DNA from: Eledone cirrhosa
Taxonomy: Eukaryota
Direction of reading: 5' to 3'
DNA length: 64,000 nucleotides
Assembly (NCBI GenBank): GCA_964016885.1
Contig: OZ024743.1
Span: 26,474,001-26,538,000 of the forward strand
Position 1 is the stretch's first letter. Each line of letters starts with the position of its first letter. Below, in pieces: positions 3,606 through 60,258 of this stretch. The translations under genes were made by a program, and so were the position numbers. The notes beneath the pieces are model-generated. The model searched no databases. It had not been told where the DNA came from and was given only the letters and a program-made list of their open reading frames with translations.

Positions 3606-6600
3606 TTTATATATAGAGCATATAAATAAATTTACAGTAGAATAACATAACAAATATGTTTTAAATATATACATAAATAACATTACAAATGCTTAGATAA
3701 CATTATAAATTGTTCGTGATTCTTTCAGAAAAACATATTCTTTTAATGTTACAATATTAAATAAAATGTAAAGGAAGGGGTGAACAACGGAGCCAACACC
3801 AGAGCAAAAGACAGCAACATCGCGAAGTGATTTTTGAGGCAAGCCAGCACACTCGCAGTGTTGCCTCAGGTAATGGCGAGGCTAATGCACTGGAACAACC
3901 AAGCGCCCTCGCGAGATTTGCCAGTTACCTCTATTAGGCGAGCCTCCAGTGAAGAGAGGAACCTCGCAGTCAGCGGCCCAACTCCTCCAAACGTCTCAAA
4001 ACCAACAGGCTGAAAAATGTAGCTGGCCGTCAGATCAGGGTATTTGAGGGTCTTACTCCGCTCGGCTGTGGTAGCTGTGGCTCTCGTCCTAATTGCAGCA
4101 TCCAGGATGTGGGAAAGAGCAAAAGAGTCACTAACAGTGACGTCCCAGACAAGGCACCTGCCTCTCGACCCTTCAGGTCTTTTGCCGTCACTTCTGGACA
4201 ACCTAGATGGTTGTAAGATTGAGGGGAAGTTCGCCCAGGCCAAAGCTCTCCTGAGAATGAGGTTTAGCTCTGTGTGATGCGTGAAGCGGCCGGCATTCAG
4301 GTGGCAAGAAAGACCGTGGAGTCGAGGAGTTTGCCGCATCGGCATCTCAAACCCATGAAGACATCAGCTCCCACTCTGAGAGCGATGGAGACACAAAGTT
4401 CGTCCAGGCTGAGTAGGCCACCATAGTTGGCCACGGGTAGGGCATCAAACCAGTTGCCTGAGTATTTGGCACTGGCAGATAGTAAGCGGTACCTTGCAAA
4501 CTGATCTGACTGGACGAAGACGGAGTTGAAGGTGGCCTTCGAACTTATGCTGTCCCAAGTTCTCTGACTTCAACTATCCTCCATCTTCTCAGGAGGCGAC
4601 AAGCCCAACTCATTCCATTGCTGGAGAATTTCACCCAACTCCCTGTTGGAACTAGTCCATGTTGGAGAGCATGCTGCTCACCAGAGTGGAGGAAAAGAAG
4701 CAGGAGAGAAAGAGAGGGACGAACACTTACGAAGACCAAGACCCCCAAATCGCTTGGGCAACGCAACCTGATTGTGGGACTCTGGAGAGAGTCTAACATT
4801 GACCAGACACTCGAGTCTCTCGAAGATTAGGTCGTCAAAGCGTTGGAGGCAAGACGGAAATCTGTGAGAGGGCTGACCCTGAGCTGATAGAGAAGCTTAG
4901 GAATAGACAGATAGTTCCAGAGTATGTAGAAACCTTGATGGGCTTCGATAACCTCAATATTCTTCAGCAACTGCTCAAGGCCAACCATCTTCGATTGGAA
5001 GATTGACTCGAAGGCAAGGTCTGTGATTGGGGCTCCTAAGGAGCACCAAGTTGACAGGGTAGGGACCGTGATGGAAGGGAAGGACTCTACAAACAGGTCG
5101 ATTAGCTGTTGGTGTTCAGGATCCAGAGCTCACATTTGGAGCTATTGACCTGGAGACCCCAGCGACCAAGCTCCTCAACTATTTTGTTGGCAGTGGTAAG
5201 AACCATATCCGAAGTTCCCCCCAAACAACCATCGTTGAGGTACCAGACATTGCGGTCCAACTCAACCCTCATCTTGGTGACGTCATCAATGCCCAGTGCA
5301 AACAGAGCAGGCCCAAGTGGGTCACCCTGTTGGACTCCTGAGGCAGAGGTGATGGTTAGGTCACAGAAAGAGAGGTAGGAGGGCTCCTGATAAGCCTGCC
5401 AAGCAAAGTGGTAGAGTTGTGGGACCCTCTCTCTTACTGAGCCGAGAACGACGTCGTGGCTGACGGAGTTAAAAGCATTCCTGAGGTCAAGTTTGAGGAT
5501 GACCTTGGGGGACGAGGAGGGCAAGTTGGTAAATGCTCTGGTAGCATGGACAGCAGCCTCACATCCCAACTTGGTACCCACCCCCAGCTGGATGGGGGAA
5601 AATTTCTCCGCCAGTGAGTCAGCGACCAACAGCAAAGGCGCCTTTGCAGTGAGGCAGCGAAGGCTGAAGCCAACCGCAATGGGGAGCAGGTTTCCGTTGG
5701 GCTTGGTGAGATCAAATAGCTTCACACCTAAGAACAGTGGGCAGATGAACGGGAGAACGTTCATTGAAGAGAACTGATTCACAAACTGAGTCAGACTCTC
5801 CAAGAGCTTGAGTCCGGCGTCACCGGCCGATAAGGAGATACCATCCTTGAGGTGTTGAGGACGAAGGCCGTCAATTCCCATGCCTGACCCAGCGGGGAAG
5901 GATAAAATCACCTTTCTGATGATATCGGTGGTGTAAACCAGTCTCGAGTATTCTGGTGGTTCGGGCCAATGTAGCTGATCATCTGGGGGTGCCGATGGGT
6001 GCTTCTTTTTCAGTCTCTCAAGAGAATCAGAGTTGCACAGAGCAAGGGAAGATAGAGAAGAGGAGACGGACAGTCCCTTTAATGTCAAATTCGCTGAATT
6101 TGGCATTGACCGCTCGCTTGAGGTCTATCGGTTGTCTGTTGGTGGACACCGGGCTCGATGTCGAACTGAGGTGAGACGTGGTTGGGGTAGACTCAAACAG
6201 CTGGAACTGCTGCTTGAGAGAGGACGTGAGGGAATCCGAATTTGCATTGTGCACATGAAGAGAGATGAGAGGAAACAAAAACAATTTCTGCCGGTCAGAC
6301 CTAATGTTGGACGAGCAAACATTTTTCAATAAATTAGACATGCAAAGCTATTCCGAGCTCCCTTAGGGATCCGGTTAACGAGCTTTGATTTGGAGAAACC
6401 CTGGAGGGGTGTGGCAAAGTCCTTGGTAGAGAGTTGGTCATCGAAGCGTGGGGCATCCCCATGGAATACATCGGAGCTGAAGTGGCACCGATTACAGGTC
6501 CAGTATTGAAGCCTTTCGGCTTGAGCTTTGGTGATGCTGACACAGCTTCTGTGGTAGCTTGCGTGGCATAGGTGACATTTAATTGTCTTTAAGTACTGGC

Positions 6601-7300
6601 TAGTGCAGGCACAGACAGTGCCATCAGGTGGTGGGCTGGCAGCAGCCAGCATTGGAATTCGGTGGAGGGAGTGAGTCAGTAAAGAAGGCAGCAGTGGTTC
6701 TAACGGTGGGACTAGAGCAGAGGTTGGGTGGTGGGCTAACAGTTGTAGGGGTGGTGGGGTTGGCTGGGTTCAATTCGTTCGGAATCTGCGGTGAAGAGAA
6801 GGATGGGGTAGGTGGGGACAAGTTAGCTCCTCTCGTGCGTACTGAAGTTGGTGAAGAATGAGAGGTCGAAGGCTGACCGGTTGTCACATAGTCATTCCAC
6901 CAAGCTGGTCTCTTGGTCGTTCGACGCATGCCTCCGCCACTTAGAGTGGATTAGGTTAAAGTGGTGGCAACGTTATCAATCGGCAATCGTCGGTGATAGT
7001 TCGATCGAAACATCGGGCCGTTGTGCGCGAGGACGAAGTAAGGGGTGAGCAGAGGGAGGGATAGAAAGTGGTGAAGGGGAGGGGGGATTATGAGTGCGTG
7101 GAGATGAGTGTGGTCATGTGAGAGGCAGGTAAATACAGTGGAAGAGAAAGAGCAATGAAGATGCAAAGAGAAGGAAAATTAAAATGTTAGAAGTACAAAA
7201 TCTAAGGCTGTGAGTTTGTGTAATATTTGGCATGGGTAAATCCGCGGTAAAATCAGAAATTGTGAGTTTGTGTAAATATCCGCATGGGCAAGGCTGCAGT
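3606..7300 (-). mobile_element. Near full-length, decayed CRE-like non-LTR retrotransposon (Pro/Ser-rich N-terminus, PHD finger, RT, CCHC, restriction-like endonuclease)
   Basis: ORF 6326-6652 has a C4HC3-type PHD pattern. ORF 5102-6106 has RT motifs (QLGVG, LDLRNAFNSV, GVQQGDPLGPALF, WYLNDG where YLDD is expected). ORF 3866-4345 has RLE motifs (DGKRP.G, LVWDVT, K..KY, F.P..FETFG). Several frameshifts and stops. The 3' UTR is shared with the copy at 22071. The 5' boundary is approximate. Confidence 0.88.
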
Positions 7301-7472
7301 AAAGTCAAAACCTGAATGATAGTGATACAAGATGTTTACAATTACAGAGTGATTACATTACTGGTCCCGAATTCTATCAAGTGGTCAAAGCTTCTAATTC
7401 TGTGAAATAGAATGGAAGTATGGCTTGACCTTTCAGACATACCTGTCTATGAATAGATTCAGGTTATTTCAA

Positions 7473-7650
7473 ACAGACCTGTCAACCTCTAAAAATCCAA
7501 ACGGGGAGTACCATGGAAAAACAGTGCCCCAGAACGGGGAGATTTTACATAATGGAAGCCATACCAATTTTCTCAAGAGAAGACACCCTTCACACATCCC
7601 AAAAGCTATTGCAAAACTTCTCGTCAGACGGGGAGAGTTGACAGGTCTGT
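7473..7650. mobile_element. Small non-autonomous DNA transposon (14-bp TIR acagacctgtcaac, internal acgggga repeats)
   Basis: acagacctgtcaac at 7473-7486 and gttgacaggtctgt at 7637-7650; three acggggag motifs inside; no clear TSD. Confidence 0.6.
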
Positions 7651-8409
7651 AGAGGGGGTCTATTTTTTCGTTTGTTTTCTTTTGGCATAAGGTAATTCTG
7701 AATGCGCGTACATGTAAAGAATGTTCACGTACTACCCTGCTTTAAGGAAATGGAAAATCTAATATTCTGGACAGATTTTGTTTAATCATTTCTCACTTAT
7801 AGCGTTGAATATCAATATATCCTATAATCCAAGGGAAGTAACTTTACTAAAGGCTAGAATATGGCATAGCTTCTCTCGATTCAGAGACCAACTTCACTTA
7901 CTCACTTGCTATTATGAGGCTTCCCACTCATCAACTTCACATTTCACCACCACCACTACTACTACAAATGAACGAATCAACCAGGCAACAACAAAAGAAA
8001 AACTCAGAACAACCTCCGCTAAAAGCCAACTAAGATCGAAAGATGGACATGAAGGCTTGGTCGGTAATTGGGGCTCCAAGTTAACACTAAGTTAATGAGG
8101 GAGAAACCGCGATGGAGGGGAAGGACTATGTGAACAGATCAACAGTCAGCTGATGTAAAGATGCTATTGTGTAGCACTAGGTTAGCCCTGTTTCAGAAGA
8201 TCGATGATCTTTCGCATGCCAGCTGTAATTATCCCGTCTTTTCTCTGGTGTATTGTTGTATCTAGAACTTAATAGAATGTATCGTAATTTTTCAAGATAG
8301 TAGGGGTCATTTTAAAGAAATTTGGCAGCTATCCAGCAGATTCAACAACTACGAAAAAGGTGTTTTGTTAAGAGTCGGCTTACATTGCCAAGTGAAGGCA
8401 AGTGCCAAC

Positions 8410-8493
8410 AAAACATCACGTGATCGAAGTACTTCCGCTTAAGACGTAACTTCCAGAATTACGTTTTACAGCTAAATAAAGTTTACTGTTAGG
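8410..8493 (+). promoter_or_regulatory. Putative TATA-less promoter of NFKBIL1 (E-box CACGTG, ETS-like ACTTCCG, CpG-containing)
   Basis: cacgtg at 8417 and acttccg at 8431, within 80 nt of the ATG; CpGs retained in otherwise CpG-poor DNA. Confidence 0.4.
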
Positions 8494-8690
8494 ATGTCTA
8501 CATGCGGTAGGGATCGACAAAAATTGTTCAATAATGTTGTTAAGTACATTCGAGATAATCGTCCAAGTCGAGCGAAAGAATACATTAAGAAACATAGACT
8601 CGGAAAATATCTTAAGAAGTTTACGGATATCAACGGCGAAAACCTCCTTCATATATGTTGTCAGTCAACCAATTCAAGACGTTTTCTAAG
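8494..8690 (+). CDS. NFKBIL1: NFKBIL1 coding exon 1 (MSTCGRDRQK...GENLLHICCQSTNSRRFL)
   Basis: ATG at 8494, open frame to donor AG|GTAAAT at 8691; contains the first ankyrin-like motif. Confidence 0.8.
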
Positions 8691-8730
8691 GTAAATATAT
8701 ATTTATATATATACAATGATATTAAATATT

Positions 8731-8792
8731 TATTCTATTATATATATTTCAAGGGTACCAAAAACTTTGGTACGCTTTCATCAGATAAAATA
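8731..8792 (-). ncRNA. Inverted copy of the same hammerhead motif
   Basis: Reverse complement of 8841-8902 with one difference, leaving only one stem II mismatch. Confidence 0.75.
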
Positions 8793-8840
8793 CAAAGAGT
8801 GTTTTATAAATTTTGACATAGCCAAGGAAACATACCTTTG

Positions 8841-8902
8841 TATTTTATCTGATGAAAGCGCACCAAAGTTTTTGGTACCCTTGAAATATATATAATAGAA
8901 TA
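8841..8902 (+). ncRNA. Type I hammerhead ribozyme motif (PLE-type, palindromic stem III), sense strand of NFKBIL1 intron 1
   Basis: tattttat-CTGATGA-aagcgcaccaaa-gtt-tttggtaccctt-GAAA-tatata-TA-atagaata: stem I 8 bp with one G-U, stem II 12 positions with 2 mismatches, stem III ATATATAT self-complementary. Confidence 0.75.
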
Positions 8903-9603
8903 AATATGGCTTCCATTTATTTAATATCATTGAATATTTACTCCAGAAATTTGTCGAGTGCTCTGAATCAGTTATAAACATTTATATTTGTTGAATTTCC
9001 AATAAATTAAATATCCCTTTTGCTTATATATATATATATATATATATATGATTTGTGTATGTGTATTTTTAAAAAAAGTACTTTATAAGGCTTTTCTTTT
9101 TTGGCCAAAATGCATTTTTGTAATAATTCATAAAATGAGCGTTATTCTTCCAACACAAAGTTAAATAAGTATTATACTGTTTGTTCATATCGCCATATAT
9201 ATATATAATTAGGAGGCGAAGCAAGTCGAACAGAACGGACATAGCTTCGACCGTTTCCTCACTCTCTCAATACACAACTAAGTTCGTATTATTAAAATTT
9301 AAACCCAGCTGGCCAGAGTGCACACTTTCGTTAATCAATGAGGAAGACGACCCATATCTATCTATCTATATATTCAGGTTTGAGGTTCACCACTGGATAG
9401 AGCTGGTCAATTCCGTATGGTCAATCGCAATGTAATAATATAGAGAGTACTCAACGTAAAGCAGTTCAACCGTCTTTGTTTTTGTAGTTGGTGGTGCTAT
9501 TACGGAGTTAAATATAATGCAATGACAGGAGGCTCGATTTGTGTAAATCCTTGAAAGGTTTATTATACTATTTTATCTATTACATTCACGTATTATATTT
9601 CGA

Positions 9604-9661
9604 ATACCTGATGATATCACCGGATTCATACGGAACTCGGTCATTGAAATAATCATAGTAT
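9604..9661 (+). ncRNA. Degenerate hammerhead-like motif within a second foldback (arms ~9512-9570 and 9656-9714)
   Basis: atac-CTGATGA-tatcaccg...cggtcatt-GAAA-taatca-TA-gtat; stems short or imperfect. Confidence 0.5.
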
Positions 9662-10734
9662 AATAAACATTTCAATGATTTACACAAATCCAACCTCCTG
9701 TCATTTCATTATATATATATATATAATACTTTATTAGATCAAGCTTGTGACTAGGACTTTCTCTTGTGTATTCACAGTGTTGTCAGACAAGACAGCCTTG
9801 TCAGATGCTCATGAGAATGCATATAAAAAACTCTAGAGTCACAAAACTTAACTTTGTCCTTAATAAGGAATATATTAATATCTATTATCGTTAAGAGTAC
9901 TCATTCTTGCGATCGTAAATAATAAGCACCATAGACCGCCATTTGTACATTTATTTATGATTCAGTCTCATCTGCATGGTTACAGTTATTTATTGCACCA
10001 TAGTTTGGGAGATTAAGATATTACTCTGTTGATCTCCAACCTACCTTATAATGTATACATCTTAAGTATGGTCATTTGGCACCTGGTAAGGGTAATTATA
10101 TTCATACCAAGGTAGAGATGATTCTTTTCTGAGTATCGATAATGTGAAACAGTACTGACTGCCGCTAGACCATCAAAATAATGATTTGATAAATTTAGTC
10201 AACACACTACTGCAATCTTTAATATTACGGTTGTAATATGAACGTCATTAAATGTTATTAAAGAAACAACGCGGATTTATATATATATATATATTATATG
10301 CCAATATTAATATCTTTATATTTCACAATTGTTTGATTCAATACAACAACGACTGACCACACATGTGGCATTGCTAGTTTAGTGACTTCCTCTGACTTTG
10401 TTTCCTCATAACTTTCTTAATACATTTTTTCTAATCAAATCTTTGCAAAGATCAAGTTTTTTAAGTCGATAAAATGTTTTTTTTTTATATTATAGTTGGC
10501 AGTATCGGTGTAGTGTCGAACAATTTTGCTTTATGGCATAGCGTTACGGCCCATTACGATCTGAGTTCAAATCCTACCGAAATTAGCTTTGCCTTTCATC
10601 CTTACAGGGTTTATAAAATAAAGTACCAGTAATGCCCTTGGGTCGATTTAATCAACTTTCCCCTTCCCCAAAATTCTTGGCCTTGTGCTTAAATCAGAAA
10701 CCAATATTATAGTTCCTGTGGTGTGCCAGATTTA

Positions 10735-11330
10735 AACTCCTCAGTTATGGCCTGAAGAACAATAATTAACAGAGGTGGACAGATGAGTGAGTCCTAGTTG
10801 AACCACAACTGCACTTCAAATTCATCATATTACTCATTGCCAACATTTACTTAGCTGACTGCACTTCTGTACATTTCTTGCACGAAATGACCATTCATCT
10901 GCACATAGCTTCTTTAACGCCCACCAAATTACAGAATGGGAAACCTGGTTAAATGCTTTTTCCAGGTCAACAAATGTCAAGTACAGGGGCTTGCTCTTAT
11001 TCAGGTGCTTCTGCAGTTGTTTCACCAGAATGAGGACATTGGTGGTACTTCTTCACACACTTATTCCTGAGAGGGTCATGGGGGCAGAGTCCTCAAACAC
11101 CCCTTCCAACAGGTCCTGTCAGAAGCAACCGTCTGCAACTGATCCGGCTGGATCCCTAACCATCACCAGCCAAGCTTATGGATGTTATTCAACCATCTTG
11201 CTTGGGGTCTACCCCTGGGTCTCTTGCAGGATAGTTTTTGCCTGTAAAATCTGTTCATAAAGCCAAACTGCATCTCATCTAACTTAATCCTGTCCCTAAT
11301 TTTGTCCATATGTCTGCATGGCTTTCTAGC
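10735..11330 (-). mobile_element. RTE RT fragment (FVDLEKAF) abutting an RTE 3'-end fragment (11047-11330)
   Basis: ORF 10834-11025 has LYLTFVDLEKAF...IWWAL; 11047-11270 matches 32344-32615. Confidence 0.75.
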
Positions 11331-11438
11331 TTAAGAGACAATATTGTTCTTGTGTCATGATTGAAATTTTGCATATAAAATTATAAGAATAGAGGTTCAA
11401 ATCTCATTGAAGGTGCTGTGCTGGGCTGTTTCAATAAC

Positions 11439-11623
11439 TGTTTCTACTTTTGGCACAAGGCCAGCAATTACCCAGTGCATTACTGGTACTTTATTTTATC
11501 GACCCCGTAAGGATGAAAGGCAAAGTCAACCTCGGCGGGATTTGAACTCAGATCGTAAAGGGACGTAACTATGCTGGAAAGCATGGCGTCCGACCCTCTA
11601 CCGATACTGCCAATCCACCGCCA
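11439..11623 (-). mobile_element. Full-length tRNA-derived SINE (family A) with a 19-bp target-site duplication
   Basis: gctgggctgtttcaataac at 11420-11438 and 11624-11642; B-box-like gagttcaaatccc on the minus strand. Related copies lie near 3340-3540, 10495-10710, 15108-15270, 15845-16045, 23530-23720, 29520-29620, 38880-39280, 47340-47870, 48750-49510 and 53225-53620. Confidence 0.88.
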
Positions 11624-12261
11624 GCTGGGCTGTTTCAATAACCTCAGCTTATTAAGGGTTCAGAACAAGAAAATACATTTGTCCTAATCAGTTAATTCCC
11701 AAGCCTATTACAACCACTGATTCATAGAAACTCTGTCTTTTCTCTCAGCTACAACAGCCTCTGCTTATTTGGACTGGCAAGCTGCATACACCAAAGATAT
11801 GAAAGCCAGGGATTTGGTGAGGCAGAGATACAGACAATCAGGAAAGATGGAGAAACTTGTTATGGAACCCACAAATTTAGTGCCTGCTTTAGTAGGAAAG
11901 ATGCTTGTTGTTGTAGAGCTTTAACTCTCTTTATTTCTCTCACTACCCATGTTTTTCTTGAAAACATTAAACTGCAGTAGTTTAACGTGAACAGTTGCAT
12001 CAATCTAGAAGCTCCCATAAAGGTTGTGGGTATTACCTAGCTGCTGATTTTTTTCTTTCTAATAAGACAGTTTGTTTTTCCTCTATACAATCTAGATCAG
12101 AAAGAGATATGCCCTTACTAGTGTGATCACTCTGCAGCTGATGTAAGTTAGAGTAAGGTTCAGTGTTGATTTGTAATACTCATCTCTCATAAACTTAATT
12201 ACCTTAGAATGTCTTATGTTAATGACTGAATGATGTTAACTTGTTTTATATTTTAAAACAG

Positions 12262-12377
12262 ATATCTTTTACGTAAAGAGGTTGATCCCTTACAAATTGA
12301 CTGTAATGGAAATTTACCCCATCACTACGCAGTACATCAAGTCTTAAATATTGAAGATCCATATGAAGCACATTTTG
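12262..12377 (+). CDS. NFKBIL1: NFKBIL1 coding exon 2 (YLLRKEVDPLQIDCNGNLPHHYAVHQVLNIEDPYEAHF)
   Basis: Acceptor ttttaaaacAG, donor G|GTAAGT; ankyrin D-x-x-G-N-x-P-x-H pattern; phase matches exon 1. Confidence 0.85.
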
Positions 12378-13337
12378 GTAAGTAATAGTTCCTGCAAAAG
12401 TAACTATAATAGTAATGACTATATTTTCCTACTTATAAAATTAAACATTTTCAGAGAATTGGAGTTGGCTGGTTTATCTCTTAACATCCTGTACCACATG
12501 AAATCACATTGGCAACAAGACATTCTTGAAAAGTACAAAACACTATGACTGCATCACATTAAAAAATAATAATTCAAATGGTGACCTTGAGGAGAAGATT
12601 CTTCTTCTTTGGCCAAGTTTACACTCACGAAAAGAGTTATAAGTTGTTTTGTTTTTTATCTACTTTATATTACCTACTGTCAGGAGCTGGTACTTGATCT
12701 ACCTGGTACAGTCTCTGATCAGAGCCATATTGGTCTGCCACCTTATCATTTGACCGGGATTGTAATTTTCTTTACAAACTATGTACTACCTGATGTGCAG
12801 CAGCCTATTCCATCAAATGGACATCTTCCTTGGCTACAAGGCATTCCCACCATCGTGCCATATTCTGTTGTTTTCTTTGCTAAGGCATTTGACATATAAC
12901 CTTCAGTATTTTATTGTAAAGTGCCTACTAAGTAAAGGTTCACTGCTGTAAAAAGCAAGAGTATTTTATAATCATTCGGTTATTCTAAATAGAATATTAG
13001 TCTAATGATTGTTTTCATAGCAAGAAATTGTTCTTCTCGCTCCACATAATGATGTAATAAATTAAAGTGTCTTTTGTGGTTATGAAAACGGAAAAGGAAG
13101 GAAAAAGCAAGGGCTCTAGGGTCACAGGAGAGGAGGAAGGGGAGGGTGATGGTTTTGTGTTGCATTTACAACCATAAATATATTATGCAACAAGCTGGCT
13201 CTTATCCATAGGAAAAGATATCTCATTTGCTTATTCAATATTACTTTATAATAACTTAATATTATTTGATTTCAAATTATAATCCTCAATATTTTAGTCT
13301 CGTATTACAAAATATCTTTTTTATATTTCTACTTCAG

Positions 13338-13462
13338 TCTTTCATGATTTTGTTCAGCCATTTCTGGATACCTTCCCCTCCTGTTTGACGATAAAAAACA
13401 AGTTTGGACATTCAACAGAGGATTTATTGTTACAATTTTGTTGTAATCAAAATATTTATCAG
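13338..13462 (+). CDS. NFKBIL1: NFKBIL1 coding exon 3 (FHDFVQPFLDTFPSCLTIKNKFGHSTEDLL...NIYQ)
   Basis: Acceptor tttctacttcAG, donor CAG|GTAATT; ankyrin-cap-like KNKFGHSTEDLL; phases consistent. Confidence 0.82.
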
Positions 13463-15107
13463 GTAATTTATCTTTATTACTCAGATATTTCGTTCATACA
13501 GAACAAGAATGAAAAAAATTATGTGGTGAGATGTACATGTATTTTTGAAGAGAGTTAAATAGCTACAACTGGAAATTGAAACCATGTCACATACTTAACT
13601 CAATAAGTACTACATGTACACCAGCAGTTTTTAATCTAAGGGTCACTGTATAATTCTGAAAGGGTCATGCATATAATTTTTTTAACTTTTGAAAGATTTG
13701 ATAAAATGCTCATGAATATGTTATACAACAAACCATAAGCATATGAGTTACAACAAAACATTTACGGCAAACAAAAAATGAGGAGTATTTCCCAAAGAAA
13801 TGTATCAAATGTTAATTCTATTAAATTTTTGGAGAATTGTTTATATTTAGATATCAAAAAAGAGGTCACAGGAAATTACTGATTTGTCAAAAATGTAAAA
13901 AGGTGGAAGCTGCTGTTCTACATCTTGATTTTTCTCCAGATATTTCATTAACCCTTTCAGTACAACCCACCCAAAACTGCCTGCTGCTATGGAACAAAGC
14001 CATCCATTTTAAATGGTTCTGATTTAAATTGATATAGAATTAGCATCTTAATTATTGACAAAATTTTAGTAAATCCCTTCGAATTTTTCAGTGATTAATT
14101 CAAATACAGTGTATTTTATTAGAAATATGGTAATAAAAGGGTTAACATGTTAGGTTAGTAGTATTGATGAACATACTAGAGAGATGGACTGGTTCCTCTA
14201 CTGTCTAAGCATCTAAGTTCAAACAGCGTTTGATTTAATTTTGCACTTATCCCTCCAAGTATAATAAATCATTCAATTGCATCTTCCATGGAAATATGCT
14301 CTTGTAAAATGGACCTCTGCCAAATTCTGACAATGAGTGTTCCAGTTTGATCATCAAAGTGTGTAAATGACTGAGTATTCCACATATATTCTTGGGAAAA
14401 TTTGGTGCAATATAGTGCAACAAGGCTAGCCCTTTGAATTACAGTACAGTCCAACCAATGAGCTTCTAAACAGTTTTCATCTACCCAATTTGACTCACAA
14501 AGCTTGGATTGACTCAAAGATATGTAAAGACACATGCCCAACATGCCATGCAATGAGATAGAACCCAGTACTTCATGATTTTAATGTAAATTTCTTAACA
14601 TTCAGCCATACCTAAGAAACAAATTACTATAAACACACTCGTTATCTGTTGGTGTTTTTAAACCCTTTCGTTACCAAATTTCTAATGAAATACACTTCTT
14701 ATGCATTTCAAATAATTTTTTAAATAATCAAGAATTTGAGTGGATTAAGTAAAATTACTAACTTTGACATTAATAAGTTTGTGTCAGGAACAAAATGTAA
14801 CAACATTTTTTTTTTCTTTTTATATTAAATTATGGTGGAAGGTTTTTAGATAAATATAACTAATTTAAAATGTGAGGTTTTGTATCATGTCAGCTGTCAG
14901 GACACTGCATCCTTCAAGACTTCCATGCTTCCCAAAATTTGCCAACAATACACCTGATATTCTCCATACACACACATGCATATATCATCACTCATACACT
15001 GTTCACTTTCCTGACATTTGTTCATCATTCTATGTACTATACATGCACCTTTAATGAGTTGTAGTGCACCTGAGCACTACACAATAATTTTCATTATTAT
15101 TATTATC

Positions 15108-15270
15108 GGTGAATTGGCAGTATCGGTAGAGGGCCGGACGTTAAGTCCCTTTACAGTCTGAGTTCAAATCCCGTTGAGGTTAACTTTGCCTTTCATCCTT
15201 ACGGGGTCGATAAAATAAAGTACCAGTAATGTACTGGGTAATTGCTGGCCTTGTGCCAAAAGTAGAAACA
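15108..15270 (+). mobile_element. SINE family A copy nested inside a TTAA MITE
   Basis: Same body as 11439-11623; attattatc flanks both sides. Confidence 0.8.
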
Positions 15271-15527
15271 ATTATTATCATAGAATCATAGGTAGTTTCA
15301 GGCAGTTTATTATTGAAAGGGTTAAAGAATTTATTCTGTTGCCTATGGCTGTCTATCATAGTATCTTAACGAATTATTTTCTAAATATTTATAAAGTACA
15401 CTATTATCTTATATGTAACTTTCTTTAGACAAATGGCATGAAAGTGGCAGTTTAATGAATCATCTTGTATTGTTAATTGTATCTCTTGTTCTTAACTACC
15501 AAACTAATTAATAGATGCCTTTTTCAG

Positions 15528-15642
15528 ATACCAGACACCTCATATGAAAGTAAAAATAGAAATGAAGAACAAGAATGGCAGTCTAAACTAGAAGCTGCCT
15601 GTGAAGATGAATATGAAAGAAACTGGGGAACATATGAAAAAG
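15528..15642 (+). CDS. NFKBIL1: NFKBIL1 coding exon 4 (IPDTSYESKNRNEEQEWQSKLEAACEDEYERNWGTYEK)
   Basis: Acceptor ctttttcAG, donor AAG|GTTCGT; EWxxKL acidic segment typical of the family. Confidence 0.82.
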
Positions 15643-16238
15643 GTTCGTCTTCAGTTAATATTTTTGATTTTGTCCTCATTGATGTTTATGTGATTGCCAT
15701 TCAAAGTTTCTTGAGACGTTACCACTATTTGCAATAAAGGGTATCTTTCTTTATGCAAAAGACTGATAAATTATATGAAATGCAATAATTAACACTACAA
15801 TAATTAAAAGCAGATATTGGATTGATACATTTGTACTGTCACTACGTTCTGAGTACAAATCTTGCCAAGGTTAACTTTGCTTTCAACCCTATGGGGTCGA
15901 TAAAATAAAGTACTGAGATAATTGCTGGCCTTGTGCCAAATGTAGAAACAATTATTTGGAGAGAAGTACCAGTCACGCACTGGGATCAATTTAATCAACT
16001 TTCCCGTCCCCAAAATTACTGGCCTTGTTCCTAAATCAGAAACCATTATTTGGAGAGAAAAAACATGTCCATATTAAAAATATCCACATTATAACACATA
16101 AGACTTAATGTTATATCAAATATTTACTTTGTTTATTGTTGCTTTTGTTTCATTTCTTGCTAAAAATAATATTTTATTTATTGTACTACAAACAATTGAA
16201 ATTAACTTTGACTTGAAAATTATATTTTTCTTATGCAG

Positions 16239-16768
16239 ACTACTTTGAAAATGACAAGGAATGGGAATCTTTTGATTCATGGACCAACAGAATTTCAGCT
16301 GAGAGAAAGAGGAAAAAGGAATCTTGGCAATATGAATACAGCTTTAGGAAATCTCATAAAAAGTCACAAAAAAAGAAAACACAGCAATCAGTTCCAGATC
16401 ACAGTGTTCCAAAACCTGAAAAGAAACTTTCTGAGAGAAAACTCTCTGAGGTTGAATTTTTAAGGAATGAAAAGAAATACAAAAAGTTGTTAAATGGAAA
16501 CCCCAAAGAAGTTCTTTCTTATGATAGCATCCCATGGCCAATGGACAACCAAGGAATGTTCCTTTCTTATAAAAATGTGGACAAACTTCATATTGACAAC
16601 ACATCAGATAACAAAATGCTGATTCGAAAATTGCAACGTCGATGGCACCCTGATAAGTTTATACAGAACTTTGGAAACCGTTTGCTTGAATCAGAGAGAG
16701 ACCAAATTATTGACCAAATTAATGAAATAGCCAAAGCACTGAATAAAATAAATGAAAAATTGCTTTGA
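16239..16768 (+). CDS. NFKBIL1: NFKBIL1 terminal coding exon (DYFENDKEWESFDSW...IPWP...RWHPDKF...EKLL*)
   Basis: Acceptor tttttcttatgcAG; open 530-nt frame that includes ORF 16487-16768. Confidence 0.9.
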
Positions 16769-17909
16769 AGAAAAATTTTGTACTGTGATAAAATTTCATT
16801 CCAAATTAATTTCACTGTAAAAAAAAAAAAAAGAAACATTTGAAATGCCTTAGTTGCAATTCATGTGTTAAATAAAATATTATATGAATTTAAATGATTT
16901 TTTTCCCCTTAAATTAGTGTGAATGGAATGTTTTTTTGTTTTTTCTCTATCAATTTGTACACGTCTATTTTTCCCTTCTTACTGTTAAGTACTCAACTGA
17001 GAAGTTTAACATCTTGCAGTCTGAAGCAAACAGGTTTATCTGCCTTGCACAACACAAAATACCGAGTTGGAATAAGCAGAGAAGTTTTTGCTCTTAGCAA
17101 CTGTATATGTGGTGATGAGAAAAAGAGTTTTCTTATATGTGAGTGGGGTGGAAATTGGAAGGGAAATTTCAGTAGCTTTATCTCTGGGAATACTACATAA
17201 AAAGCCATATTAGTTTAAGAAGTTGTAAAGCTTATCTAGAGATCTTCTTGGCAAGATTGCAATTTGAATGTTGGAAATGTATTCTTGCTAACCATCTTAC
17301 AGATATTGTGGTGGCGTGTAAATGTCCAAGTGCCTTTGTGTTGTAGACAGTGTCCTTTAACATAGTTCAAGGGAACCACTTGGTGATCTTGGATTTGTGA
17401 GAGTTGCTGCTAGTTCTACAAGAGCCAAAATTGAAACACATTTGCTGCTAAGGATAGCATTCTACAAGCATAGCTCCAATCACTTGTGAGGTGGGTTGCC
17501 TTATTTACTAGTGGTTAGATAATCTGGTGGTTGTGAAAAGAAATCACAAGTGGATGGAAAGTCAGTATGTTAGTCTGATTTGAATTGATGAGAAAACTAA
17601 CTGATGCTGACAATTTTCAACATTCTACATATCTTGGACCTAAATAGTTTCTTGGGGGAGTTAGTCTAGTTTTCCTCTTGTTAATAATCTTACACTAGAG
17701 TTGTTGTTGTTAGTGTGGGAGGGATGTTGTATTATCTCAACTGGGTAATTTAAAGTTGAGTTCAGCACTTTTAGACCATCAAAACATGGTTATCAAGCCA
17801 ACAATGAAGCTTCTGCTCAATCGTCCAACATGCTATAAATGCCCCTAAAGCTCCTTTAATTCATACCTTAGACATTGATATACAAAATGACAGGTTAATT
17901 ACAGGTAGT

Positions 17910-18228
17910 AGTAGTGACACTCCGTCAGTTACGAGTATTTCTGTTGATATGATCAACGGAACAGCCTGCTCATGAAATTAACGTGCGAGTGACTGAGCAT
18001 TCCACAAACACACATACCTTTAACGTAGTTCTCAGGGAGATTCAGCATGACACAATGTGACAAGGCTGGCCCTTCGAATTACAGGTACAACTCATTTTTG
18101 CCAGCTGAGTGGACTGGAGCAACATGAAATAAAGTGTCTTGCTCAAGGACAACATGCTGCTGGAAATCAAACTCACAACCTTACAATCATGAGCTGAATA
18201 CCCTAACCACAAAGCCATGTGCCTTCAC
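17910..18228 (-). mobile_element. tRNA-derived SINE (family B)
   Basis: Minus strand gaaggcacatggctttgtggttaggg...ccttgagcaagacactttatttc...ctccagtccactcagctg. Related copies at ~35117-35225, 37290-37600, 43085-43240 and 55785-56080. Confidence 0.8.
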
Positions 18229-22070: not shown

Positions 22071-22747
22071 TTTTTTTTTTAATATATATACAAAGCATAT
22101 AAATAAATTTACAGTAGAATAATAACAAATATGTTTTAAATATATACATAAATAACATTACAAATGCTTAGATAACATTATAAATTGCTCGTGATTCTTT
22201 CAGAAGGGTATATTCTTTTAATGTTGCAATTTTAAAGAAAATGTAAAGGAAGGGTTGAACAACCGAGCCAACACCAGAGTAAAAGACAGCAACGTCGCGA
22301 GGAGTACTGGGCAACCTCTCTAATGATTTTTGAGGCAAGCCAGTACACTCGCAGTGTTGCCTCGGGTGATGGCGAGGCTAATGCGCTGGAACAATCAAGC
22401 ACCCTCGCGAGATTCGCCAGTTACCTCTATTAGGCGAGCCGCCAGTGAAGAGAGGAACCTCGCAGTCAGCGGCCCAACTCCCCCAAACGTCTCAAAGGCC
22501 ACAGGCTGAAAAATGTAGCTGGCCGACAGATCAGAGTATTTGAGGGTTTTACTCCGCTCGGCTGCGGAAACTGGCTCTCGTCCTAACCGCAGCATCCAGG
22601 ATGTGGGAAGAAGCAAAAGAGTCACTAACAGTGACGTCCAGACAAGGCACCTGCCTCTCGACCAGGGGCACAGGGTAAGGCCGTCATGTCTTTTGCCGTC
22701 ACTTCTGGACAACCCAGATGGTAGTAAGATTGAGGGGATGTTCGCCC
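22071..22747 (-). mobile_element. 5'-truncated copy of the same CRE-like element (RLE, 3' UTR, A10 tail)
   Basis: Highly similar to 3606-4236; T10 at 22071-22080 is the poly(A) tail on the minus strand; ORF 22395-22712 reads DGKRHDGLTLCPWSRGRCLVW. Confidence 0.9.
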
Positions 22748-23529
22748 CCAGCCTAATACAGAGAAATAAATCTCTACATTTTCAAAATCATTTGAAAATT
22801 ATAGGCAGTGTCCCTCATTAAAGATATAGTAACAAAAGGCTTAAAATGTTTTGTTTGTTTTTTTAAATAGTTTATTATCATATAACAAATATATAAGATT
22901 AAATAGAAGTACACACATGTAATCAATTAATTATTGCTAGGAAGCTTATAAATATTATACACAAAAATAGTTTATTTTTAAATTGCATGTTTCCCGCATG
23001 TATGTGTAGTACTGCCCTTAACTTGATATTTCAATGCAGCATAATTGATATTTTATCATTTTGTCCCTTAAACTTTTACAGATGTTGTGGCTAATTAACT
23101 GTTTCAACAGGATTTATTTCAAGCTAGCTCATGGGTCAGATTTTGGGATTAAAGGTTCTAATCTGAATCTATGAGAGAAAAAAAGTTGTCCATCAACTAA
23201 GAAACCTTCACTCAACAGTACTCTGTAAGTCTCTTGTCTCTTTTACTATTACTGTGATAATACTGTCCCTCTAGACCTGTTAGCTATTTAATACTTCTAC
23301 TTAACCCTTTAGTATTTATATTACTCTATATATACTATTGTATTTTTGTGGTAAAGGCGTTACCTCATAATATGAGATCTATGATATTTTTATATTATTT
23401 ATTTTGAGAACAATACCTTAACATCAGTATGAGTGGCCAGAATGGCCTGTTTGAGCAGAAAGAGGTGAGAGAATTATGGCCGGATGTGGCCAGTTTAAAT
23501 GTTGAAGGGTTAAACCAGTACACTTCCTA

Positions 23530-27463: not shown

Positions 27464-27688
27464 GTAAGATGTTCCTGTGGCAATATTTTAATGGAATGGT
27501 ATGTGTTAATAACAGGATAAAGAGTCCTCTTTATCCTGCAGTGTCTTCATTCAGAGACAGTAAGCAGGAAAAGGCTATGAGCTCTGCTTTGTCTTCTCAA
27601 AATTAATATATGATTATTTTATGTTTCATGTGCTAAGGAAAATACATAGATATATAAATAAATCTTTTCTTTTGTCTTGTATTCACAG

Positions 27689-27767
27689 GCATTACCCTGT
27701 AGGAGTTCTTTTTGATCTTTATGGTTCTGAGGAAAATCTACCTTGGAAACTTACTGTTCACTTTCAG
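27689..27767 (+). CDS. ATG5: ATG5 coding exon 3 (HYPVGVLFDLYGSEENLPWKLTVHFQ)
   Basis: attcacAG acceptor, CAG|GTAATC donor, 79 nt. Confidence 0.95.
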
Positions 27768-28706
27768 GTAATCTCTGCTGACTAAAATGTTTCAGCTTCT
27801 GTTGGTCATTTGTTCTTTAGATAGTCTCTTTTATGTAAGATTATTGTAAATCTTAGTAGAGCCTTGCAAACACAAGTTGTTAATGAAACATTTATTGATG
27901 TTAATGTTGAGTTGTAGATTACACATGGTATATAAATAACAACAGACATTTACTGAGGTATGGGTGTGACTCCATAAATGTAATGGAGCTGTATTTATTA
28001 TATCTTGGTTGATTGACTTTGGTGAAACTTGAGTAACTGTCAGCCGAGATACATATTACAATGAAATATTTAGTTACAATCCATAACTACAGAAGCCTTG
28101 GGCATGGATATATAAGATGATCAATACATAGATTTGGGTCAAACATCTTGTTTTCAAAGTAAGACATACTTCCCATTTAGGAAACAGTAAGGAGTTTGTT
28201 GAATATTTTCAAGTGAAATTATTACAAAGAAGTTCCCTTACTGGTTTGTGTACAAATCTTTTAGGTCTTCATAATTTAATGTCTGTCTTCCTTGTTAGAC
28301 AGACATGACAGCAATTCTGATATCTTCTATAACCAGTGAAACAATGTAAATTAGCTCTTTTGTCACTATATGTCTAATGAAAAATCCTGCATATAATTTC
28401 AAAATAATTTTGAAAATAATGAAAACTTTGGAGGGATTTAATAATAATATAACTAACTTTTTTCATTAATTATCTTATGTTTAGAGCATGAGGTTCTTAT
28501 AAAAGATTTTGATGGTAGGACTTTAAATAAATATATACACTTTAAAACAAACAGCTTCATGTCATAAGAGCAGAAGCAGTTTCAGACAGTTTGGTAACAA
28601 AAGAGTTAGACTTCATTTAGAAACCCAGAATTGCAAATCTTCTGGTTCTTGAAAGTAAAATTTAAAATATCCCAAATCTATAAACCATTCTAATTTTTTT
28701 TTCTGA

Positions 28707-28967
<261 letters not shown>

Positions 28968-30339
28968 TGAATCTTTGTCTCTTAATTTTTCTTAATTAGT
29001 CAGAGGAGCAGGAGGAGGTGCAGCACTTATGGCCTTTGTAAGCCCAGCCAACTTGGCTAAATGAATGTACTTGATATTTATAATGAATTTCTTTAGACTG
29101 ATATATGTGAATACATGGATGGTAGGTAGAGTATTGCAGACAGCTTTAGCTCTAAGAAGAATTAGACAAAGTTTTTAGTGTTGTCTCTGACAGATATGAC
29201 ATAGTAAGAATGAGGGAAGGTAAGTACATTAGATGGGTTTAAGTGAACATGGTGTGCATCCTACTGACTCAGAAGAACAGAGGCCATTGTATTATCTGTA
29301 GAGATTTAAAAAGAAAAAAATATTTTTGTGATTCAGTGGTTGTATGTTGGTGAGTTAGGTTTTGCCAATCAATCAGTTAGGATACATCCATCTCCCTTTT
29401 GAATGCCTGTGTATAGCACTATCACTGAGCTTTGTTAAGGAAGGTTAGCTATTGATCAGAATTAAAATATGTTGTCTCTTATGATGAAACTTAGTTTTTG
29501 AGGTGTAATTTTTTGATATTATGCCGAGGTTAACTTTGCCTTTCATCCTTACGGGGTCGATAAAATAAAGTACCAGTAATGCACTGGGTAATTGCTGGCC
29601 TTGTGCCAAAAAGTAGAAAGATCAGAAGAAAATTGTGAGGACATATATTTGTAGTGACTTTGAGGAATTTAATCATGTGTTGTTCATGTTTATAGAGAAT
29701 GCTATGCAGGATTGTAGTTTTTGTACTGTTGAGGGAAATTTTGTTTGATATGTCAGTTAGCAGATATTTTCAAGATTTTTCTTGGAACTAATGCAAGTTT
29801 TATATGAATACATAGATGATGTCAGTTTGTGAAAGGATTGAAAAAGAATGGTTTTATCATTGTGCTTACAATAGCAAGTAGATCATTAACCCTTTTGATA
29901 TCATACTGCTTCAAATTACTCTTCATATTATATTATAAAACTGTTTGTTTTAAAGTGTTTAAATTTATCTAAGACCCTTCTATCATAATTTTATGTAAGA
30001 ACCTTTATGTTCCAACACCAACTTAATGAGAAAATTAGTTATATTACTAAATTCTTTCAAATTCTTGATTATTTTCAAAATCATTTGAAAACTGTGTCTT
30101 TTATTAGAATTATCATAACAAAAGAAGCATATTGGTAACATAACCAATTCTTGGAGTACACCAGAGTTGATGACTGCAGGTCAAAGAAACCTTCCAGCAG
30201 TGGAGTAGCTCTCATGCCAAACACAATTGAATGATATACTGATGTTAAGGATGAGACCACTGGTGTGTGATGTAGGAGAACAAGTCTTCAATAGATCTGG
30301 CTTTATTGAAACTATACAGGAAAGAGTGTGTGTGTCTGA

Positions 30340-37829: not shown

Positions 37830-38858
37830 GGCAGTAGTGGTATCACCTATTATTATAGCAGTTGACTGTGGTGGTATCACCTATTATAGCACTGGTGGTA
37901 TCACCTATTATTATAGCAGTTGACAGTGGTGGTATCACTTATTATTATGGCAGTGGTGGTATCACCTATTATTATGGCAGTGGTGGTATCATCTATTATT
38001 ATGGCAGTGGTGGTATCACCTATTATTATAGCAGTGGTGGTATCACCTATTATTATGGCAGTGGTGGTATCACCTATTATTATGGCAGTGGTGGTATCAC
38101 CTATTATTATGGCAGTGGTGGTATCACCTATTATTATAGCAGTTGACAGTGGTGGTATCACTTATTATTATGGCAGTGGTGGTATCACCTATTATTATGG
38201 CAGTGGTGGTATCATCTATTATAGCAGTTGAGAGTGGTAATATCACCTATTATAGCAGTTGAGAGTGGTAATATCACCTATTATTTTAGTAATGGTGGGT
38301 GGTATCACCTATTATTATAGCAGTGGTGGTATCACCTATTATTATAGCAGTGATGGTATCACCTATTATTATAGCAGTGATGGTATCACCTATTATTATA
38401 GCAGTGATGGTATCACCTATTATTATAGCAGTGGTGGTATCACCTATTATTATAGCAGTTGACAGTGGTGGTATCACTTATTATTATAGCAGTGGTGGTA
38501 TCACCTATTATTATAGCAGTGGTGGTATCACCTATTATTATAGCAGTGGTGGTATCACCTATTATTATAGCAGTGGTGGTATCACCTATTATTATAGCAG
38601 TGGTGGTATCACCTATTATTATAGCAGTGGTGGTATCACCTATTATAGCAGTTGATAGTGGTGGTATCACCTATTATTATAGCAGTGGTGGTATCACCTA
38701 TTATTATAGCAGTGGTGGTATCACCTATTATTATAGCAGTGGTGGTATCACCTATTATAGCAGTTGATAGTGGTGGTATCACCTATTATTATGGCAGTGG
38801 TGGCATCACCTATTATTATAGCAGTTGACAGTGGTGGTATCACCTATTATTATGGCAG
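37830..38858. repeat. 27-bp minisatellite (RGCAGTGGTGGTATCACCTATTATTAT)n, about 38 units, with periodic 7-nt insertion variants
   Basis: Directly visible tandem array; the repeated peptides in the ORF track (SSGGITYYY, AVVVSPIII) reflect the 27-nt period. Confidence 0.97.
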
Positions 38859-57526: not shown

Positions 57527-57782
57527 CAGAGAATCAGACTACAGCACTTGAATCAATTGCAATATATGACTGATTCATAATTTATCAAGCATGCTAAGAT
57601 CCAAAGAAAAAAATTCAAGTCATAGTAGGATCCGAATTTGAGAAAAAATATTGTAAATGTTGCCAATAAGAAACACACGCACCAGTTGCTTTCACTTCAA
57701 TTTATTATATATTTATAAATTTATAAATTTACAAATCTATAAATTTCTGGTTGGTTCCACACCCAGATAGTTGTTTATATAT

Positions 57783-57827
57783 AGTCATAGTCCTTTCGTC
57801 ACACACTCTGTGACCTCTTCAGTGACT
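57783..57827 (-). ncRNA. Mirror-copy hammerhead motif in the left arm of the PLE palindrome
   Basis: Reverse complement of 59198-59242. Confidence 0.78.
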
Positions 57828-59197
57828 GGGGATTCCTTTTTTCGTTTCTGTGCCTTTCCTTTCTTCTATCCTACGCCATTTTGTTTCTGTGTGTGTGTTG
57901 TGTGCTCAGTTTGCGCATGCGCCACATCCGGGTGTCTGTGTGTGTTTGTGTTCATTTATCTATTTGTTTATTTATTTACATGTTATTGGTTGGTTGTTTG
58001 TTCTATGTGTGTGTGTGTTTTCATTTTGTCCTTAATTGTAAGTTGTGATGTTGCTGTTCCACTCATATTTTCTATTTAATTTTGGTTGTAATTCTTTTAT
58101 GTTTATTGCCTCAACATTGCATCTTTTCTGTGTGTAGATTCTATTTTTATTTCTATGTTCTCTAATTTACCCTTGTGTTCTATCTTAGCATGTTGGTAGA
58201 GTACAGATGATTCTTTATCTTGAAGGTCTCGCCAGTGTTCATTTATCCGTTCCCCTATACTACGAGCTGTCTCACCTATGTACACTATATTTTTGTTTCT
58301 ACATTGTCCTTCAGTACATCTTATGCTATACACTACATTTCTAGTTTTACAGTTAATATGGGGGCTTATTTTACAGGTTATACATTTCTTATCTATACAT
58401 GAGGGTCTTTGAAACGGGTATGTCTTGCTAATAAGTGTTAATAAGTGTTTTTACGGAGGTACCTCCGTAAAAACACTTATTAGCAAGACATACCCGTTTC
58501 AAAGACCCTCATGTATAGATAAGAAATGTATAACCTGTAAAATAAGCCCCCATATTAACTGTAAAACTAGAAATGTAGTGTATAGCATAAGATGTACTGA
58601 AGGACAATGTAGAAACAAAAATATAGTGTACATAGGTGAGACAGCTCGTAGTATAGGGGAACAGATAAATGAACACTGGCGAGACCTTCAAGATAATAAA
58701 GAATCATCTGTACTCTACCAACATGCTAAGATAGAACACAAGGGTAAATTAGAGAACATAGAAGGCGAGACCTTCAAGATAATAAAGAATCATCTGTACT
58801 CTACCAACATGCTAAGATAGAACACAAGGGTAAATTAGAGAACATAGAAATAAAAATAGAATCTACACACAGAAAAGATGCAATGTTTAGACAAATTACA
58901 GAGGCAATAAACATAAAAGAATTACAACCAAAATTAAATAGAAAATATGAGTGGAACAGCAACATCACAACTTACAATTAAGGACAAAATGAAAACACAC
59001 ACACACACACATAGAACAAACAACCAACCAATAACATGTAAATAAATAAATAAATAAACAAATAGATAAATGAACACAAACACACACAGACACCCGGATG
59101 TGGCGCATGCGCAAACTGAGCACACAACACACACACAGAAACAAAATGGCGTAGGACAGAAGAAAGGAAAGGCACAGAAACAAAGAAAGGAATCCCC

Positions 59198-59242
59198 AGT
59201 CACTGAAGAGGTCACAGAGTGTGTGACGAAAGGACTATGACT
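59198..59242 (+). ncRNA. Minimal type I hammerhead ribozyme motif in the PLE pLTR
   Basis: agtca-CTGAAGA-g-gtcaca-gagtg-tgtgac-GAAA-ggac-TA-tgact: stem I 5 bp, stem II 6 bp, intact core; predicted cleavage after 59237. Confidence 0.78.
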
Positions 59243-60140
59243 ATATATAAACAACTATCTGGTTGTGGAACCAACCAGAAATTTATAGATTTGTAGATTT
59301 GTAAATATATAATAAATTGAAGTGAAAGCAACTGGTGCGTGTGTTTCTTATTGGCAACATGACTCTCCCAAAGTATAACAATATCGGTTTCAACACACGA
59401 TTTCAGATAAAGAATCTTGCTAAACAAATTCAGAAACGAAATATTGTAAATGATTTGTTAGGAACTTGTTTGTGTGTGTGTATGTTAAATCTTCACTTTT
59501 TAACTCTTTTCATACCAACCACCCCTAGTTATATGATACAAAGCTGTTTATTTTAAAGAGTTTATATTTATCTGGGAATCTTCCATCATAATTTTGTTCC
59601 AAATACCAACTTAATAATAAGAGCAAGAGAGTTATATTACTAAATCCCTCCAAATTTCTGATTATTTTCAAAATGATTTGAAAACCATAGACAGTAATTT
59701 CATAACAAATATGATTATGAAAGGGTTAAGCTAATTTGTGCTAGAAATAACAGCCAAATCTTCCTCAACTCACACTCTACTTAGTTAACAAAAGTTTATA
59801 TTAATGTAAACGAGGTTGCACTATGCCTAGAAAAAAAGTCACATTGGTCACAATCAAGGCTAACATAGGCTTATAGTTAAATAACTCTATTGTACTACTA
59901 ATAATTATTAGGAATATTAACCACATTGATCTGACTGATCTTGGATGGCCTGCGAAGGTTATTGGCACAGCCTTCCCCTTCCTCCCTCCACAACCTGCAG
60001 TAAAACACAAAATTATTCTCAGACAGATGAAAAATAACTTTAATGAAATTCTGTCACAGTATTAAAACATGTTTAAAATGTATGTATATAGGCAGATGTA
60101 TTATTCTGCCAGTTAGTGGGAGTGTATATATGTATATGTA

Positions 60141-60258
60141 TATATAATAATTGTTTCTACTTTAGGCACAAGGCCAGCAATTACCCAGTGCATTACTGGT
60201 ACTTTATGCACTGGGTAATTGCTGTCCTTGTGCCTAAAGTAGAAACAATTATTATATG
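60141..60258. repeat. Foldback of the SINE family A 3' end (~52-bp stem, 12-nt loop)
   Basis: ataataattgtttctactttaggcacaaggccagcaattacccagtgcat-tactggtacttt-atgcactgggtaattgctgtccttgtgcctaaagtagaaacaattattat; one mismatch. Confidence 0.9.

Follow-up and report, generated by a model that had tools for sequence, protein, structure and literature searches.

A head-to-head pair of truncated Penelope-like pLTR ends with hammerhead motifs in NFKBIL1 intron 1 of Eledone cirrhosa, a likely neutral insertion

At the start of intron 1 of a gene of Eledone cirrhosa two hammerhead motifs lie head-to-head in an inverted repeat. A sequence-only reading of this locus proposed a ribozyme/anti-ribozyme switch, in which the sense hammerhead would be locked by its own antisense until editing or unwinding released it, and kept as a fallback a neutral relic tolerated because it is masked. 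Is the arrangement peculiar to this gene, or is it what a retroelement leaves behind? We have examined the locus within a window of 64,000 nt (contig OZ024743.1, 26,474,001 to 26,538,000), whose coordinates are used throughout, together with related copies across the genome. Our answer is that it is very probably a 312-bp insertion in (TA)n, in which two 5'-truncated pLTR ends from a Penelope-like element (PLE) of the Hydra clade are arranged head to head; it is likely a neutral relic, with its hammerheads predicted to be locked in a hairpin.

The identity of the host gene as the NFKBIL1 orthologue holds. The last exon is 64% identical to Argonauta hians NFKBIL1 (E 5e-68) and 72% identical to a protein of Octopus vulgaris. 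The name rests on these homologues and on weak ankyrin matches within them; an Atlas search with exon 5 returned unnamed clusters only. In run X1 a contig of 1,441 nt has 8199-8690 spliced to exons at 12262, 13337, 15524 and 16237, and with the exon translations it places intron 1 at 8691-12261. Run X1 is on record not listed as RNA, and behaves as RNA because it contains this spliced contig. Removal of intron 1 at the normal donor is seen in this one contig from one run, with no expression levels. No locus-specific intron contig was present in run X1. All the runs consist of contigs from a single study, which are blind to RNA ends, strand, level and editing. The A>G and T>C differences in X1 are all shared with DNA run X2 and derive from other copies, so they are uninformative on editing. 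Downstream of NFKBIL1 on the same strand lie ATG5 exons (Pfam ATG5_UblA and ATG5_HBR, 27564-28970 (+)). Just upstream of the window there is an uninterrupted 395-aa ORF (L068:1990-3174 (+)), possibly a retrocopy or single-exon gene, and presumably resembling acid ceramidase.

The insertion comprises 312 bp (8714-9025) within a (TA)n run. The features are as follows, where C3 is the hammerhead core residue of that number.

8199..8690, + strand: NFKBIL1 exon 1, with ATG at 8494 and donor GT at 8691-8692 (from the spliced contig, translations and homologues)
8693..8713, no strand: left (TA)n-rich target run (from the sequence)
8714..8838, - strand: left copy, a 5'-truncated pLTR starting ~55-60 nt upstream of C3
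8731..8792, - strand: left-copy hammerhead, C3 at 8784, predicted cut after 8739, stem II intact
8798..8835, - strand: pLTR upstream of the left-copy hammerhead, earlier called a spacer (from alignment)
8836..8838, no strand: 3-nt junction overlap of the two copies (from alignment; rows L001/L031)
8836..9025, + strand: right copy, a 5'-truncated pLTR starting at C3-13 and continuing past site 1 (8932) into the tail
8841..8902, + strand: right-copy hammerhead, C3 at 8849, G12 at 8883, predicted cut after 8894
8933..9025, + strand: 93-nt tail, which in near-full-length copies follows the 5' pLTR and precedes the ORF start codon
9026..9049, no strand: right (TA)n target run (from the sequence)

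The left copy ends at the short end, site 1 (C3+99), and has a 27-nt deletion downstream of its hammerhead, near 8727. The right copy ends at site 2 (C3+192) and has a 14-nt deletion near 8909. Both deletions lie where L049 and L050 have lost sequence too. This anatomy bears out much of what had been described, including the TA-rich tracts on both flanks (8693-8713 and 9026-9049) and the 72-nt inverted arms (8726-8797 and 8836-8907), which are 99% complementary with one mismatch and 38 nt between them. The inverted repeat is real, but its extent is 8714-8932, interrupted by the 27-nt and 14-nt deletions. The 38-nt spacer (8798-8835) was given the right length, but alignment makes it an extra 5' part of the left-copy pLTR. 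The element does lie at the start of intron 1, but it begins 23 nt into the intron, not 35.

The pLTR also carries a strong splice-donor-like site ~59 nt upstream of C3 (L071:235-250; window 8828-8838 (-)), and there are acceptor-like sites within the tail (window 8945-8946). Together these sites suggest a putative 5'UTR intron enclosing the hammerhead. A genome search for spliced retro-copies, with the donor at ~C3-59 joined to the acceptor at 8945-8946, found none. PLEs retain introns, so the missing retro-copies say little.

Each arm contains a complete type I hammerhead core, as had been recognized, with C3 at 8849(+) and 8784(-). We use the established hammerhead residue numbering and take the core adenosines to be required. 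In both motifs stem I has 8 bp, one of them G-U, and stem III is palindromic (self-complementary) as previously reported. Stem II comprises 10 pairs with one internal C-C mismatch. In the right copy a T-to-C change at 8861 breaks one stem II pair, and the first stem II pair is A-U. Cleavage of this copy is predicted after 8894, the very position that had been expected. The left-copy hammerhead is antisense within the NFKBIL1 pre-mRNA. A descriptor scan of the 64-kb window returned four hammerhead motifs, and none in each of 10 shuffles. The suggested comparison with the Rfam hammerhead model gave no match: the 11 and 8 matches returned by the scans were all to hairpin-type miRNA models, under their gathering scores. 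Stem II covariation was analyzed in 15 related copies, hand-picked for diversity from 77 distinct motifs. Both sides had changed in 7 of the 10 pairs, and 93.7% of the cells paired compared with 40-54% in slid controls; kinship among the 15 copies inflates the shuffle test. This covariation argues that the hammerhead fold was under selection in the past, within the retroelement lineage.

What was that retroelement? A search with the RT/EN ORF gave 4,411 candidates. At 8 of the 12 loci examined a hammerhead is found on the ORF strand, within the locus in L070-L074, L078 and L080, and further out in L069, where it is seen as L061. In L070, L074 and L078 the order is ORF, 3'UTR and hammerhead on one strand, and L074 is a whole unit of pLTR-tail-ORF-pLTR-tail-(TA)n. 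A pLTR of the type at the NFKBIL1 locus is linked in L070 and L071 to an ORF with RT followed by GIY-YIG, and the near-full-length parents L070, L071 and L074 carry the same pLTR, which supports the Penelope-like origin put forward earlier. For L061-L063 the inverted partners lie at distances of 1.3-5.2 kb, and at two of these loci the long arm contains RT/EN fragments. Every ORF copy examined has frameshifts or stops.

The diagnostic marks of the Hydra clade are defined in the part of Craig et al. (PMC8557442) available to us, and the family carries them. There is a single ORF with RT, then GIY-YIG at the C terminus, contiguous with the pLTR in copies that are frameshifted. The RWK motif reads RWR in L071 and L072, as it does in the listed member Hydra-1_Crog (PMC8557442 supplement, in the portion seen). 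DKG is replaced by DKT, as SDKTNNLY in L071, L072 and L078 and as in Hydra-1_Obim, and the CxCx5C linker is CNCRIKSNC. Read by eye, the GIY-YIG core is without CCHH and has one Cys inside it, and CxxC and CxH flank the conserved E and N (CKLC..E..N..CRH in L080 and L074). The protein has a YRDD motif and is collinear by eye with Hydra-1_Obim. The target is (TA)n and the pLTR hammerhead is sense to the ORF. The hammerhead-to-hammerhead distance in L074 is ~3.27 kb, where Hydra elements are 'generally' <3 kb in the same text (PMC8557442). Pfam and PDB searches with the ORF returned no direct match; among Atlas neighbors at 0.94-0.95, RVT_1 or GIY-YIG is annotated on 21-49% of members. On its motifs, target and pLTR hammerhead we place the parent as a Hydra-clade Penelope-like retroelement. 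Its region containing both 3' end sites and the start codon (L071:375-545) is well folded (z -3.95), and in the predicted fold a small hairpin contains site 1, and site 2 adjoins a multiloop.

The family is abundant. The 25-nt hammerhead core motif has 1,379 exact matches in the genome (control 0). Similarity searches gave 3,706 first-look candidates with the locus, of which 40 were scored, and 2,506 with the tail alone. The first 100 of the 1,379 matches include 13 divergent pairs within 5 kb, two of which have equal spacing and may be one duplicated locus, with no convergent pair and one direct. The first 30 matches correspond to 27 distinct position-sampled loci. An inverted partner is present at 15 of these, 13 within 1.5 kb and the others at 1.6 and 2.8 kb. 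The remaining 12 have none among blast matches of at least 45 nt within ~7 kb, and one of these is a direct tandem. Inversion is common, not obligatory. Extrapolating 15/27 to the 1,379 matches puts the number of inverted pairs in the genome at about 690, as a rough lower bound. The same TA runs also contain nested copies of related hammerhead subfamilies, at least four in number, whose stem II changes are compensatory (L025, L030, L054, L091 and L111).

The ends of the arms follow a rule. Of 142 arm ends, 136 are at site 1 (C3+99) or site 2 (C3+192). Among 56 de-duplicated adjacent pairs, 48 combine one short end with one 93-nt-tailed end and 7 are unclassifiable; thus the 49 classifiable pairs contain one with two short ends and none with two tails. 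Two of the three pair samples were picked by tail-containing queries, a bias against short-short pairs. In the sample chosen by the motif, once 3 duplicates had been removed, 10 pairs were mixed, none had like ends and 1 could not be classed. The flanks at site 1 begin TATATA in 35 of 59 cases, most others being TA/TG variants, and those at site 2 begin ATATAT in 47 of 56. At the other end of the arms, 51 of the 112 5' starts in the 56 pairs (L002-L110) fall 61-80 nt upstream of C3. This truncation hot spot possibly marks the pLTR transcription start or an RT stop. We also considered that hammerhead cleavage sets the 5' ends and rejected it, as no arm start of 112 falls in the +40 bin and three fall in the +30 bin. 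The junctions show 55 distinct start combinations among the 56 pairs; the arms either overlap or are separated by a short insert (-15 to +26 nt). The different junctions indicate that pairs arise anew at insertion. The two arms within one insertion have 44 minor variants in common, a number reached in 0 of 500 permutations; gene conversion after insertion could be an alternative source of such variants.

These observations fit two priming events by one complex, given the one-of-each ends, the like-sourced arms and the clustered 5' ends. The GIY-YIG endonuclease of the element would cut both strands of the TA run, and each free 3' end would prime reverse transcription on element RNA, one at site 1 and the other at site 2, 93 nt downstream. 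Both cDNAs would stop early, and the truncated products would be joined, here at the 3-nt overlap, giving two outward-facing pLTR ends. That a single complex cuts both strands, primes cDNA at each site and has its truncated products joined is probable. An Anolis PLE provides a precedent: both strands are cleaved and extended, and two start sites delimit a tail, according to the part of PMC11167929 available to us.

Could the palindrome instead move or form as a unit, as a MITE-like or fold-back DNA element or by fold-back after insertion? The element is short with long inverted arms in TA-rich DNA, and variants are common to the arms of one locus, as such an origin would lead one to expect. 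Against this, neither the junctions nor the lengths are uniform, differing in 55 of 56 pairs. A single-copy fold-back does not give the fixed asymmetry of one short and one tailed end, and some left arms are kilobases long and contain an RT-EN ORF. This origin is scarcely credible. The question is then whether the pair does anything in NFKBIL1. RNA 8691-8945 is predicted to fold into a single hairpin of -122.8 kcal/mol (z -22.6), an energy matched by 0 of 200 shuffles. The hammerhead fold in this context is -45.0 kcal/mol, a cost of ~78 kcal/mol, so the physical masking that had been envisaged is predicted. Masking on both strands is automatic for any inverted pLTR pair. A switch, in which ADAR editing or unwinding freed the sense hammerhead so that the pre-mRNA was cut after 8894, would draw on an intact core preceded by its antisense arm, and A-to-I editing in metazoans falls mainly on young inverted repeats (PMC9989829, in the part seen), so that ADAR editing of this hairpin is likely by analogy. 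Yet the energetic cost in context stands against release, and even the isolated sense arm adopts the monomer hammerhead fold with P ~2e-5, in a model without tertiary contacts. Random editing of the 82 duplex adenosines was simulated at 10-75%, letting inosine either behave as G or stay unpaired, and an intact core was unmasked in 0 of 320 trials. Heavy editing destroys core adenosines: at 50% editing the five were kept in only 1 of 40 trials. The pre-mRNA strand has one sense copy only, the one with the stem II mismatch, and in the available part of PMC4209133 a single minimal PLE motif gave no detectable cleavage and dimers low cleavage. The Anolis PLE hammerhead required the PLE protein, with no reads ending at its cut site (PMC11167929, as far as seen). 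Nor do the cores show any sign of selection after insertion: their substitutions are 0.029 per site compared with 0.014 downstream, so they are no better kept than the flanks. Since 57 of 71 cores are intact, two intact cores at one locus are expected ~64% of the time, and the divergence of the arms at NFKBIL1 is typical of the family. Finally the inverted pair is generic, present at 15 of the 27 sampled loci and already in print (PMC4209133 and PMC8557442, each in part). The proposed switch is not supported and is highly improbable; no natural intronic hammerhead released by editing was found in the literature, judged from listings.

A different role would leave the origin unchanged and have the hairpin modestly tune the splicing of intron 1 through pairing of the tail with the donor, with no cleavage. 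Only 23 nt separate the element and the donor, and tail bases 8934-8942 are predicted to pair with the exon 1 donor (P 0.97-0.99). Opening the donor would cost 5.3-5.8 kcal/mol compared with 3.6 kcal/mol without the element, an increase of 1.7-2.2 kcal/mol, and the hairpin may also hide a cryptic acceptor at 8945-8946. On the other hand the donor is transcribed ~245 nt ahead of the tail, and the spliced contig (one contig, one run, no levels) uses the normal donor. The likeness of donor and tail is the top score among 60 site-1 flanks, but it is reached by 229 of 19,852 random 45-mers (1.2%), so that ~0.7 would be expected by chance. Such tuning is unlikely. Homology-guided targeting of the donor was rejected as chance. 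A stronger version, that the hairpin has been co-opted as a splicing rheostat of NFKBIL1, with the tail sequestering the donor and variable ADAR editing loosening the pairing, is very unlikely. If it were true, editing of the AU-rich duplex would vary with tissue or condition and so change the removal of intron 1, and the hammerhead would be a passenger. We infer instead that the insertion is neutral; the fallback reading of a relic is the likely one, and the inverted pair is the usual insertion product of the family. The hammerhead would be part of the retroelement life cycle, its cutting needing a second same-sense copy or an element protein. In the host pre-mRNA the antisense arm would be made first and the hairpin would then form; editing of it by ADAR is likely, as for other young inverted repeats, and splicing would remove the intron.

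Other elements occur in the window. A 1.7-kb fold-back at 57657-59360, 49 kb away, contains a second, unrelated head-to-head hammerhead pair (57822-/59203+). It has a GIY-YIG EN fragment with a CxxC linker and CCHH, and is from another PLE family with the same geometry, which we take to be Neptune-like. A head-to-head fold-back of the abundant dispersed repeat D3-D6, presumably SINE-like, is present at 60139-60259 with flanking TA/TAA runs. A broken non-LTR retrotransposon lies at 3700-7050 (-), with RVT_1 at 5105-6124 and a PHD-like Cys-rich stretch, and a related fragment is found near 22200-22800. There is a tandem array of 27-nt period (D1/D2) at 37831-38858.

The NFKBIL1 locus itself is ordinary, one among several hundred such pairs. 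The value lies in the data set on PLE integration, in which each inverted pair has one short and one 93-nt-tailed end; the like-sourced arms and the 5' ends clustered 60-80 nt upstream of the core belong to the same rule. The part of PMC8557442 seen poses as an open question how PLEs come to have tandem and inverted ends. Hammerhead-plus-antisense hairpins in octopod introns would be a routine PLE footprint, a caution for motif scanners, and are likely a bulk source of dsRNA for editing.

How does the family compare with known systems? The comparisons are with those parts of the cited sources that were available. Like the Hydra-clade PLEs (Craig et al. 2021, PMC8557442; Hydra-1_Obim of Octopus bimaculoides and Penelope-13_HM) it has a C-terminal GIY-YIG without CCHH, the DKT, RW(K/R), CxCx5C, CxxC and CxH motifs, a (TA)n target and a pLTR hammerhead. 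It differs from Hydra-1_Obim in its hammerhead sequence, its clear pLTR and a unit of ~3.27 kb compared with 2.5 kb, and from PLEs generally in a tail of 93 nt compared with 30-40 bp. The arrangement has precedents. Inverted 5'-truncated PLE copies are described, with the tail often at one end only (PMC8557442); a 5'-truncated inverted copy of Penelope-13_HM has a hammerhead on both strands (PMC8557442 supplement S1/S2); and Schistosoma has dual minimal hammerheads, one on each strand and separated by 100-700 bp (PMC4209133). No literature on octopus, Penelope and hammerhead was found beyond PMC8557442, judged from listings. We regard the element as a new PLE family of a known clade with a known arrangement; Repbase or the paper supplements may already hold the family or the one-of-each rule.

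The ribozymes share with minimal PLE hammerheads (Cervera and de la Pena 2014, PMC4209133) the type I topology, a long helix II and a tiny palindromic helix III. The conserved core and short palindromic helix III are both present, and point to the dimer-type minimal hammerhead proposed earlier. Unlike those hammerheads, where the first helix II pair is a conserved G-C, here it is A-U (of 98 arms, 94 have the A and 97 the U, rather than G10.1-C11.1), there is no extra base after A9 and helix I has 8 bp. Non-LTR retrozymes (PMC7229834; bioRxiv 10.64898/2026.07.22.740005) are likewise short non-coding hammerhead repeats related to PLE pLTRs. They form head-to-tail tandem arrays, whereas the NFKBIL1 locus is a head-to-head pair, with no such array in 7000-18000. 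The integration pattern most resembles that of PAc (Poseidon) (Frangieh et al. 2024, PMC11167929), which has two fixed 3' ends with the tail between them near the ORF start and an AT-rich target, and which cuts and extends both strands in vitro. The PAc start site showed no strand difference in vitro (PMC11167929). In the Eledone family the two sites, separated by 93 nt, both lie upstream of the start codon, and each inverted pair uses one of each.
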